DNA of 64,000 nucleotides from Shigella phage ESh29, in the sequence record ON528739; one strand, 5' to 3'. The translations under genes and the position numbers were made by a program. This document shows positions 2,989-21,549 of the stretch, piece after piece. Below the pieces are notes generated by a model. The model ran no database searches. It was given only the letters and a program-made list of their open reading frames with translations, and had not been told where the DNA came from. Position 1 is the stretch's first letter. Each line of letters starts with the position of its first letter.

Positions 2989-3213
2989 TTATATAACTCT
3001 CATATGCATATCAATGCCCATATCTTTAGAATAAAAATATTCATCAAGATATCCGGCAAATTTTCCTTTAACATAAAGTACATCTTCACCACATGGGTGG
3101 TCGGCCAGGATACGAATATCCTGACGCTTGAGATTATACTTCTTCATTAAGAATTGAATTTCCGTTTCAAATTCTTCTTCATAATTAAAAGCATCATCAA
3201 TGCTATATTTCAT
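2989..3213 (-). CDS. Small protein, 74 aa (T4 uvsY.-1 position)
   Basis: ORF immediately downstream of uvsY on the minus strand, abutting its stop. Confidence 0.55.
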   Translation of the reverse strand: MKYSIDDAFNYEEEFETEIQFLMKKYNLKRQDIRILADHPCGEDVLYVKGKFAGYLDEYFYSKDMGIDMHMRVI

Positions 3214-3626
3214 TATTTTCCAGCCTCAAATGCTCGCATGTCTTGAATATGCTTAATAGCAAATCCACGTGATTTAATAGCATCAAGAGCTCCACTACAG
3301 AAATCTAATAAAATCCCCCAATACTGCAGCGAGGTATCAACCTTTAAAACATCCTTATCAGCTGATAGAACTGTTTTCATTTCTGATTTCTCGTAACGAT
3401 CCATACTAAATTCATCACCATCTCCTCGTCCCGAGTAGTAGTCTAATTTAGCTTTAAGAGCAACTTTTTTCTGTGCATCAATTCTAAGCATTTCCTTTTT
3501 AATACTTGAATGCTTATTAAGCCATTTACTATATAACATCACATTATTAGCTGCTTCATACTGTAATTTAGTCGAATCTATAAACACATCTTTCTTCAAT
3601 TCTTCTTGAAGATCTTCTAATCTCAT
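3213..3626 (-). CDS. uvsY: UvsY recombination mediator protein, 137 aa
   Basis: Length and sequence recognised as T4 UvsY; synteny. Confidence 0.9.
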   Translation of the reverse strand: MRLEDLQEELKKDVFIDSTKLQYEAANNVMLYSKWLNKHSSIKKEMLRIDAQKKVALKAKLDYYSGRGDGDEFSMDRYEKSEMKTVLSADKDVLKVDTSLQYWGILLDFCSGALDAIKSRGFAIKHIQDMRAFEAGK

Positions 3627-20313: not shown

Positions 20314-20343
20314 ATACTATCACAAAGGAGCTATATTGTAAAC
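20314..20343 (-). promoter_or_regulatory. Early-promoter-like element (GTTTAC, 18-nt spacer, TAGTAT), minus strand
   Basis: Minus-strand GTTTAC at 20338-20343, TAGTAT at 20314-20319; AAAGGAG RBS and a 25-codon ORF follow. Confidence 0.5.
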
Positions 20344-20364
20344 AACTTTATGCAATCTTTGGAA

Positions 20365-20392
20365 AATAAAAAGGACTCCCGAAGGAGTCCTC
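20365..20392 (-). terminator. Rho-independent terminator (minus strand)
   Basis: GGACTCC-TTCG-GGAGTCC hairpin followed by TTTTTATTTTCC on the minus strand, just after the 58-aa ORF. Confidence 0.75.
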
Positions 20393-20395
20393 AAC

Positions 20396-20572
20396 TTATG
20401 CTTTCTGCTTACCAAAACGAGAAGCATCATCTCGAAGAACCGCACGTGCTCGGCGCATGATCTTCTCAACAGTTTGATTGATACGAGAGTTCGACCCACG
20501 CTTGTAGCCAGCGCGTTTAGAATCACCAACTTTCTTTTCAACTGCTTTCTTTGCTTTAACTTGTTTTGCCAT
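20396..20572 (-). CDS. Small highly basic Lys/Arg-rich protein, 58 aa
   Basis: ATG at 20572 (MAKQVKAKKAVEKKVGDSKRAGYKRGS...); terminator directly downstream; track ORF 20396-20614 has an upstream alternative start. Confidence 0.5.
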   Translation of the reverse strand: MAKQVKAKKAVEKKVGDSKRAGYKRGSNSRINQTVEKIMRRARAVLRDDASRFGKQKA

Positions 20573-20817
20573 TATAAATTCTCTTTTAAATGAAAATGCA
20601 GGACTTATTGGCATTGCCTGCGCAAGCCCTCAAGGGGAACATAGGTTTTTGGATATTTAACGACCAGGATAACCATAAACCCGTCATCATTCACATTCAA
20701 GAGGTACACCGTAAAACTGCCGGGGTCTTAAAACTATAATGATTCGCAAATCATTAATCAGACAGTTCGACGTCTCCTCGATTTTAGCTCACACTAAGGC
20801 AGTGAATCTCCAATAAA

Positions 20818-21066
20818 TTACTTCAGTGTTACCACAAAGTGACGAACTGCTTTTCGTGCAGCAGAAGCCAGAGGCTTAGCATATTTAAGTTCATCTTTTT
20901 CCTGAAGCTCGGCAGCTAATGCAGTTTGAGCAGGATTCAGATGTTTGAAATAACGCAGGATTTCAAGAGCTTCGGCTTCAACATCAATAGATGCGCCATA
21001 GTTTTCGTGACCATTATTCCATGCGTTTCGTTGCAGTTCAAGAGCGTGTTGTAATTGTTTAATCAT
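20818..21066 (-). CDS. rIII: rIII lysis-inhibition accessory protein, 82 aa
   Basis: 82 aa; position between the 30.x array and gene 31. Confidence 0.75.
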   Translation of the reverse strand: MIKQLQHALELQRNAWNNGHENYGASIDVEAEALEILRYFKHLNPAQTALAAELQEKDELKYAKPLASAARKAVRHFVVTLK

Positions 21067-21213: not shown

Positions 21214-21549
21214 TCACTTATAAAGACACGGAATAGCTTTATAGTGACAAGTAACAAATTTTTGTTTAATTTCTTTTGGCTGCTTAAGACCCAGAGCTAC
21301 AAAAGGATGCGGAACATTTCGAATTTGACCAACTGGAAGAGAAGTCAAATCACCAACTTCACAGAAACCTTCAGGAACATCAGGACCAACAGAGTGAACT
21401 ACACACAATTCAGGAACTTCACCTTGAACACGTTTACCGATAATAAGTCCTGATTCTGTAACTTCTTCATCACCGGCTTGTGCAGGTTCAGAAACTAAAA
21501 TAACATATTCACCTACAGCACGAATTGGTAGCTGTTGTACTTCAGACAT
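21214..21549 (-). CDS. 31: Co-chaperonin gp31 (GroES analogue), 111 aa
   Basis: 111 aa; sequence recognised as gp31; synteny. Confidence 0.9.

Follow-up and report, generated by a model that had tools for sequence, protein, structure and literature searches.

Structured RNA modules, one of them ToxI-like, between rIII and 30.9 of a T4-type Shigella phage

Introduction

ToxI is the antitoxin RNA of the type III toxin–antitoxin systems (ToxIN), which mediate abortive infection. It folds into a pseudoknot of two short stems with two G:C pairs each and is encoded 5' of toxN as a 5.5-fold tandem array, which ToxN processes at AA/AU on both sides of the repeat (PMC5772629). Residues C27 and U28 of the repeat are each essential for antitoxicity (PMC3475682). 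In our searches, the 36-nt repeat was found with 100% identity as a tandem array beside a gene of the ToxN/AbiQ family in pECA1039 and in about 50 small E. coli plasmids. A phage version has been described in the Pectobacterium phage phiTE (Blower et al. 2012), whose pseudo-ToxI (annotated as ncRNA in NC_020201) is an intergenic, non-coding ToxI copy without toxN; it comprises 1.5 repeats, and escape occurs by repeat expansion (PMC3475682). One such repeat failed to neutralise over-expressed ToxN (PMC3475682).

Wild-type T4 is restricted by plasmid-borne toxIN, and in five evolution lines it escaped by amplification of tifA, not of the rIII–30.9 locus (PMC9391042). The product TifA targets ToxN, the toxin of the ToxI family, and belongs to dmd-tifA-adfA, a T-even locus apparently devoted to countering toxin–antitoxin defences (PMC9391042, PMC10853763). 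The rIII–30.9 gap of the T-even phages resembles dmd-tifA-adfA in this possible role, but the latter encodes proteins in the 61.x region, whereas the gap would act through RNA only and its activity is a candidate one. No mention of a ToxI-like RNA at rIII–30.9 was found in the two T4/toxIN studies (PMC9391042, PMC10853763). Likewise, the literature searched, of which coverage was incomplete, yielded nothing on the core sequences of the modules A and B described below or on T4 transcript data for the gap. Although T4 is the reference virulent phage, these 245 bp are unannotated. A further point of comparison are the species 1 and species 2 RNAs of T4, stable non-tRNA RNAs encoded within the phage tRNA cluster.

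Here, we describe the gap in Shigella phage ESh29, based on a stretch of 64,000 nucleotides of record ON528739 (referred to as the window). An initial annotation, made from the sequence alone, had regarded the gap as non-coding and had proposed a long structured leader, a small RNA or a promoter/operator cluster.

Results and discussion

The rIII–30.9 gap lacks a conserved reading frame

The window derives from a T4-type phage with about 99% identity to T4, and its nearest records are Tequatrovirus. The genes at the locus are all encoded on the minus strand:

21214-21549, minus strand: gene 31
20818-21066, minus strand: rIII, lysis-inhibition accessory protein of 82 aa, upstream gene of the unit (PHROG 1457, E 5e-44; T4 annotation)
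20396-20572, minus strand: gene 30.9, basic protein of 58 aa, downstream gene (PHROG 1427, E 4e-31)

PHROG 1427 is a group of unknown function, and no Pfam family was found for gp30.9. Since rIII ends at 20818 (stop codon 20818-20820) and the ATG of 30.9 lies at 20572, the gap comprises the 245 bp from 20573 to 20817, and the ORF-free stretch that had been noted between the two genes is confirmed. It corresponds to the rIII–30.9 intergenic region of T4 (130541-130784), where the reference AF158101 carries no annotated feature. Both reported inverted repeats are present, GCAGG/CCTGC at 20598-20621 and CCCC/GGG at 20627-20637. The supposed GC-richness is mild: the gap has 39.6% GC compared to 35.7% for the window, but is about equal to rIII.

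The gap contains no conserved ORF, and its longest open run, 49 codons on the antisense strand, has no Shine-Dalgarno (SD) sequence, in agreement with the earlier view that no SD-led frame exists. A conserved protein gene at this position in related phages, which would have spoken for an overlooked frame, is likewise missing; the relatives differ by 1-nt indels and by insertions and deletions of module size instead. That a small protein gene was nevertheless overlooked here appears exceedingly improbable. ORFs of 34–49 codons do occur in several frames, and an alternative ATG at 20614, giving a 72-aa form of 30.9, was annotated by others in two records (X54536 and Kha5h). However, all six frames contain stops, the ORFs are broken by 1-nt indels among close relatives and lack an SD, and the substitutions are paired as in RNA helices and are not codon-like. 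The ATG at 20614 reads ACG in RB69 and IME08, so the short form of 30.9 has the conserved start.

The gap is a conserved mosaic read in gene sense

Identities were measured against Mosigvirus, Gaprivervirus and Dhakavirus relatives:

Module B (central part of the gap): 87–98%
Module C (3' part of the gap): 93–97%
rIII: 84–86%
Gene 31: 79–88%
Gene 30.9: 72–93%
Gene 30.8: 58–78%

With 87–98% in the main modules compared to 72–93% in the flanking rIII and 30.9, these comparisons indicate that the gap is not spacer and is under stronger constraint than its neighbours. Variation within it takes the form of 1-nt indels and of sharp-edged presence or absence of whole blocks, a pattern that effectively rules out a missed gene and makes the gap a mosaic of units. 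Module A is cleanly missing from RB69 and JS98, modules A and B are both missing from EcNP1, and other modules are found inserted elsewhere. The alignment with T-even relatives that had been suggested as a check for compensatory changes revealed such changes across the whole gap, where they back the helices described below, and G:U pairs were seen only when the gap was read in gene sense. Judged from these alignments, the minus strand of the gap consists of three independently evolving RNA modules, A, B and C. The earlier proposal of a structured leader or small RNA thus holds for the structure, while a discrete RNA species would be a further step.

RNA folding, also suggested beforehand, gave a mixed picture. 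MFE folding of the whole gap was uninformative on both strands (z = -0.5 and -0.8), and a signal emerged only per module and by comparison, with per-module folds recovering the architecture of module B in three clades. The proposed Infernal/Rfam check returned no family for the gap at E values up to 10 (searches with 2.5 kb and 291 nt), and Rfam had no match at four related loci (Mosigvirus, Jiaodavirus, Kuravirus) either. An Rfam listing of DUF2815 RNA in the gap was dismissed as chance-level (14.5 bits compared to a gathering score of 41.2). ARAGORN called no tRNA or tmRNA gene in the whole window.

The suggested promoter/operator cluster found no support, as a promoter and terminator scan detected no sigma-70-like promoter or terminator-like site within 20573-20817, and inspection by eye gave no match to the MotA box or the late-promoter consensus. 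The nearest sites of the scan lie in rIII, in the 3' portion of 30.9 itself (20418-20434) and further downstream. There, a strong terminator-like hairpin follows 30.9 at 20371-20392 (GAGGACUCC-UUCG-GGAGUCCUU and a U tract), and beyond it a sigma-70-like promoter, TTTACA-17-TAGTAT, is located at 20314-20342; both have counterparts in the annotation of Kha5h and X54536, as early terminator and early promoter, respectively. An Rfam match to "Atu_C8" at 20357-20440 merely reflects this terminator hairpin.

Module A resembles a single, diverged ToxI repeat

The first module lies directly behind the rIII stop codon:

20780-20812, minus strand: module A, single diverged copy of a ToxI-type antitoxin pseudoknot (pseudo-ToxI-like), UGGAGAUUCACUGCCUUAGUGUGAGCUAAAAUC; recognised by covariance model, stems and position

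A covariance model of the ToxI family, from which Tequatrovirus and Gaprivervirus sequences had been left out, gave its top match on both strands of the 64 kb at this site, but the match was weak (16.2 bits, E 0.25), and with 12.7 bits (E about 1) for the T4 copy direct similarity to ToxI is not significant. The local score of the window copy hardly exceeded background (30, background 28), and blastn with this copy alone stayed below significance. The same model clearly recognised the syntenic copies of Mosigvirus mar005 (AGGTGATTCGCTACCTTAAGTGCGGCTAGAAAATC; 64.9 bits) and Gaprivervirus PSD2001 (33.3 bits, E 4e-5), the latter differing from the window copy at four positions. Membership in the ToxI family therefore rests on a graded chain and on position. 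The mar005 copy shares about 90% identity with ToxI, and its first 26 nt equal those of the annotated phiTE pseudo-ToxI (repeat 1), including the compensatory change U9C/A25G common to both; the T4/window copy has diverged much more, by four further substitutions, a shorter loop and the loss of one stem-1 pair.

Along the series ToxI, mar005, PSD2001 and T4/window, stem 2 changes from UUGC/GCAG via UCGC/GCGG to UCAC/GUGA; it is paired at 96.6%, with two of its four pairs changed on both sides. In stem 1, both G:C pairs are retained, and the third pair, U:A, is missing from the Tequatrovirus type. Module A thus shows the two-stem pseudoknot of ToxI, and the copies of the window, T4, PSD2001 and mar005 all have the critical GCUA with C27 and U28, in contrast to the phiTE repeat, which is inactivated by mutation of C27/U28. 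Both ToxI and module A have a unit of about 33–36 nt with both stems and a recognisable GCUA(G)AAAU 3' tail. Module A differs from ToxI in its single unit, seen in the window and in all T-evens inspected where ToxI (and, with 1.5 repeats, phiTE) has an array, and in having no toxN as neighbour; the 6 nt following it (GAGGAG) are only a faint echo of AGGUGA. On its 3' side the sequence AAAAU is found, while the window has no AAAU within about 30 nt upstream; in Mosigvirus, AAAU occurs at the rIII stop, 8 nt upstream of the module. Position (after the rIII stop and before module B), graded series and structure together argue that module A descends from the ToxI antitoxin pseudoknot as a single, diverged copy, which in the T4 type may have decayed.

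With regard to activity, the Mosigvirus type appears to be the better candidate for an active mimic than the T4 type. The mar005 copy differs from ToxI only by changes of classes that proved harmless (groups 2, 3 and 5 in PMC3475682) and is free of C27G and U28A, the changes that inactivate the phiTE repeat; if active, it should neutralise ToxN. For the T4 type, the toxIN sensitivity of T4 and the insufficiency of one phiTE repeat suggest that this copy may be weak, tuned to another ToxN or decaying, and the behaviour of T4 towards toxIN argues that any effect of module A on ToxN is weak. A ToxI-like RNA as the cause of the relative toxIN resistance of RB69, the T-even least affected by toxIN, was considered and rejected, as RB69 has no module A.

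One could go further and regard the T4-type module A as a decaying pseudo-ToxI relic and the rest of the gap as conserved by recent ancestry or recombination without present function. The distance of this copy from ToxI, the broken stem 2 in the natural variants Kha5h and AV123, the sensitivity of T4 to toxIN and the loss of module A in several lineages would fit such a scenario. We nevertheless consider it very unlikely, since modules B and C are more conserved across genera than the adjacent coding sequence, module B shows compensatory changes and invariant loops in lineages that are otherwise dissimilar here, and module A itself still has the residues critical in ToxI and the two G:C pairs of stem 1.

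Module B is a four-helix RNA shared by unrelated E. coli phages

The central module has a more elaborate fold:

20701-20779, minus strand: module B, interrupted hairpin of four helices (P1–P4); recognised by covariation, MFE and covariance model R1

Helix P4 (20737-20756) is closed by a tetraloop of the UGCG/UACG type, with UGCG, UACG, UAAG and UGAG as apical variants, and the internal loops are near-invariant: CUGAU; UAUAGUUUUA...CC.CG; CGA/UUUU; GUGUA. On an alignment of 15 sequences from T-even phages, Vequintavirinae and Kuravirus (A1), 97.9% of the cells pair and 11 of the 24 pairs are changed on both sides, with at least two doubly changed pairs in each helix; in a control with the 3' partners slid by 1–3 columns, only 0–2 doubly changed pairs were obtained. 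Independent MFE folds of the copies from the window, W70 and O18-011 gave an identical architecture. The structure is assigned to the transcribed strand because several pairs go through a G:U state that would read C:A on the opposite one.

With model R1, the window yielded a single copy (20690-20786, 115 bits), and phiTE, JD18 and Kenya-K36 yielded none. Diverged copies were collected by blastn with the gap, blastn with the W70 copy and a regular-expression sweep of the fetched loci. Apart from the T-evens, module B is carried by the Vequintavirinae W70 and A73, by the Kuravirus phages O18-011, PGN6866 and XT18 and, via captured T4-type DNA, by Justusliebigvirus, i.e., by four unrelated groups of E. 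coli phages, and every carrier found infects E. coli. The sweep over all loci gave a further copy on a small Kuravirus-like contig filed in a Bacillota MAG bin. The gap had no blastn match in 72,556 plasmids (two queries covering the gap) or in 5,426 complete E. coli genomes, so modules B and C cannot be recognised as copied from any host or plasmid RNA. Pattern scans for the core of module B in genome, viral and metagenome contigs returned mostly chance matches in AT-rich genomes, and among the viral-contig matches and the 80 metagenome matches listed only T4-type copies scored with R1. Matching no described family in these comparisons, module B appears to be a new one.

The surroundings of module B differ from group to group. 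In the T-evens it is enclosed in an mRNA, with rIII on one side and 30.9 on the other; in W70 it follows a sigma-70-like promoter (10/12) by about 135 nt, just 5' of tRNA genes; and in Kuravirus it occupies the 3' UTR after an ORF, beside terL and before a terminator-like hairpin. Contexts without any common gene argue against a gene-specific cis-regulator.

Two of these loci have peculiarities of their own (fetched loci are numbered L, with coordinates of their own). In W70 (L005 3104-3186), module B is directly followed by a sequence that resembles a tRNA and has a long extra arm (GCGCGGGTGTATCTCAACGG...GGTTCGAGTCC...CCCGCGC); ARAGORN does not call it, and the next called gene is tRNA-Met (3204-3278). 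In O18-011 (L014 2427-2900), the slot with module B runs straight into the portal gene, and the ribosome-binding site of terL is kept without a terL ORF, while PGN6866 and XT18 have terL there; a deletion, a rearrangement or an assembly or annotation issue are all possible.

Module C forms the probable leader of 30.9

The 3' third of the gap is built from a series of hairpins:

20579-20690, minus strand: module C, hairpin set forming the probable 30.9 leader
20644-20690, minus strand: C1 hairpin (AUGACGGG/CCUGGUCGU); its GGUUAUC loop is conserved, and its A-rich tail ends in AAAACC (RNAalifold)
20627-20637, minus strand: small hairpin CCCC-UUGA-GGG followed by a conserved GCUUGCG; three (near-)invariant C:G pairs in nine phages
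20598-20621, minus strand: hairpin GCAGG-(14 nt)-CCUGC followed by a U-rich stretch (inverted repeat)
20579-20596, minus strand: SD hairpin UUUUC-(8 nt)-GAGAA, pairing the SD region of 30.9 (GAGAA); five pairs by RNAalifold

For C1, RNAalifold on eight phages from six genera gave eight pairs, four of them with compensatory double changes, and the hairpin is also present in Jiaodavirus, Muldoonvirus, Kanagawavirus and Kagamiyamavirus. The GCAGG/CCUGC stem, whose loop contains the non-conserved alternative ATG at 20614, occurs in the T-evens of E. coli; other genera have GGGAGC/GCUCCC with a much longer loop at the equivalent place. The terminator scan did not call this hairpin. An equivalent of the SD hairpin in other genera places UUCUCC/GGAAGA over the SD, with two pairs doubly changed. 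Module C with its SD hairpin adjoins 30.9 in nine genera and was present with 30.9 in every genus examined; no such constant gene association exists for modules A and B, which occur without 30.9 in W70 and Kuravirus and are missing in some T-evens. Module C is thus best read as the 5' leader of 30.9, in which the last hairpin is predicted to occlude the ribosome-binding site. For this part of the gap, the structured leader of the initial annotation is borne out by the structural model.

A possible cassette of decoy RNAs

Taking the modules together, we hold it somewhat more probable than an even chance that the gap represents a cassette in which decoy or anti-defence RNAs (A and B) are co-transcribed with the leader of 30.9 (C). 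We regard the structures and the homology chain as solid and infer from them every functional step as well as the expression of discrete RNAs. The gap would be transcribed on the minus strand within the gene 31–rIII–30.9 unit, and the modules could be cut out of this transcript or act within it. By analogy to the phiTE pseudo-ToxI, module A may act, or may once have acted, as a decoy binding ToxN-family endoribonucleases. The invariant internal loops of module B would point to a specific protein or RNA partner, and its mobility among unrelated E. coli phages, its non-homologous contexts and its co-occurrence with ToxI-like units suggest a role in trans, most likely as another decoy or anti-defence RNA or as an RNA binding a host factor. 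The last hairpin of module C, in turn, would hide the ribosome-binding site of 30.9.

In contrast, the whole gap could be purely cis-acting, i.e., 3' UTR of rIII and 5' leader of 30.9 without any trans-acting RNA, setting mRNA processing, stability and translation of 30.9, e.g., by gp30.9 autoregulation or via RNase sites. It speaks for this that no genus examined has 30.9 without module C, the stem at 20598-20621 and the SD-covering hairpin, and that the gap must be co-transcribed because it has no internal promoter or terminator. Modules A and B moreover contain GGAG motifs, which we take to be RegB-type cleavage sites in T4. However, unrelated phages have A and B unaccompanied by rIII or 30.9 and in three different transcript contexts, EcNP1, RB69 and JS98 dispense with A and/or B yet keep 30.9 and module C, and a leader role leaves the homology to ToxI unexplained. 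A purely cis-acting gap is therefore an alternative to be taken seriously that we nonetheless consider unlikely.

An extension of the cassette model would see the rIII–30.9 gap of the T-evens as an "RNA anti-defence island", a fixed slot in which structured decoy RNAs are collected, swapped and discarded; this is a tentative and rather doubtful proposal. Module B and the approximately 150-nt element described below would then represent new classes of RNA that counter or subvert an immune or RNA-processing factor of E. coli, and the ToxI-like module would be the sole member with a nameable target (ToxN).

If the modules are active RNAs, antitoxin RNA mimicry, documented for one Pectobacterium phage, would be widespread, and module B would represent a new and portable RNA for which E. 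coli provides a specific partner, a matter relevant to host range and to the engineering of therapeutic phages. Even as mere leader or processing elements, the modules would usefully extend the annotation of T4-type genomes by conserved RNA structures.

Captured copies of the gap and a further RNA element

In the Justusliebigvirus phages muut (L004 3990-4350) and AV123 (L013 2460-2810), a copy of the entire T4-type gap with 97% identity lies between tRNA-Gly and tRNA-Gln in tRNA orientation. It includes the last approximately 88 nt of rIII in circularly permuted order. A 13-bp direct repeat, TTTATTGGAGATT, bounds it on both sides, and the final 8 nt of this repeat equal the 5' end of tRNA-Gln. 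This arrangement suggests that a circular or tandemly duplicated intermediate was integrated via microhomology. The captured gap has persisted, with at least two isolates and, in addition, several metagenomic contigs carrying it, as would be expected of a useful RNA cassette, but a neutral recombination product is also conceivable.

Such events could also indicate a feature acting at the DNA level, i.e., a recombination hotspot or scar field of short mobile cassettes in which the hairpins are incidental or act in single-stranded DNA. Besides the transfer of the whole gap to Justusliebigvirus with a permuted piece of rIII and a 13-bp direct repeat, the sharp boundaries of the module-sized insertions and deletions and the terminal inverted repeat of the 150-nt element would agree with this explanation. 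It appears distinctly improbable to us, as pairing is kept through G:U intermediates that read C:A on the other strand, the orientation is always that of transcription, tRNA operons included, the combination of invariant internal loops with covarying stems is typical of RNA, and no transposase or homing endonuclease lies nearby.

The approximately 150-nt element (CGGCAAGUGCAUGCUACC...CAACAGAUAAGAG) is what many Tevenvirinae genera, as well as some Tequatroviruses, have in the rIII–30.9 gap, though T4 and the window lack it. It is located, e.g., at about 718-877 of L006 (Pu-Krd-SF6) and about 1237-1375 of L019 (Klebsiella phage JD18), and is also present in L164–L168. Rfam offers no match, and the element is apparently one more structured RNA yet to be described: RNAalifold predicts a multi-helix fold of 46 pairs, 15 of them with compensatory changes, including a hairpin with a GNRA loop, and the element has a terminal inverted repeat of its own.

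ToxI-like repeats in other phages

Blastn of ToxI against 50,697 phage records revealed single ToxI-like units in many lineages, with matches, mostly unannotated, in 215 listed records; they comprise T-even, T5-like, Kuravirus, Felixounavirus-size and Vibrio phage records. About 160 T-even phages of Klebsiella (e.g., JD18) carry such a unit inside the rIII–30.9 gap. Pseudo-ToxI is a known kind of RNA with one described phage example, which the copies in T-even relatives and the diverged T4 form would, by sequence comparison, extend.

In Kuravirus XT18, module B and a ToxI-like unit are found on opposite sides of terL; with the T-evens also carrying both, the two thus co-occur in two unrelated lineages. 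The idea of a Kuravirus slot holding either module B or a ToxI-like repeat as alternative cargo was rejected, since XT18 has both.

As for the stable RNAs of phage tRNA clusters, tRNA genes are the surroundings, with the same orientation, of module B in W70, of the captured gap in muut/AV123 and of the repeats in Kenya-K36 and phiTE. The position of module B, the captured gap and the ToxI-like repeats between tRNA genes implies a possible maturation by the tRNA-processing machinery. The window differs from those clusters in that it has no tRNA gene and its modules sit inside an mRNA.

The repeat of XT18 lies beside terL (L018 1204-1247, L360 156-256), and that of Kenya-K36, a T5-like Salmonella phage (Tequintavirus), between tRNA-Ile and tRNA-Met (L020, about 1207-1245). 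Both are near-canonical, intergenic and about 97–99% identical to ToxI, in unrelated virulent phages. The pseudo-ToxI locus of phiTE (L021, about 1185-1295) apparently sits in a tRNA-like scaffold, with the D-loop-like sequence TATAGCTCAG upstream of pseudo-ToxI and GGTTCGAACCC...CCACCA downstream of it.
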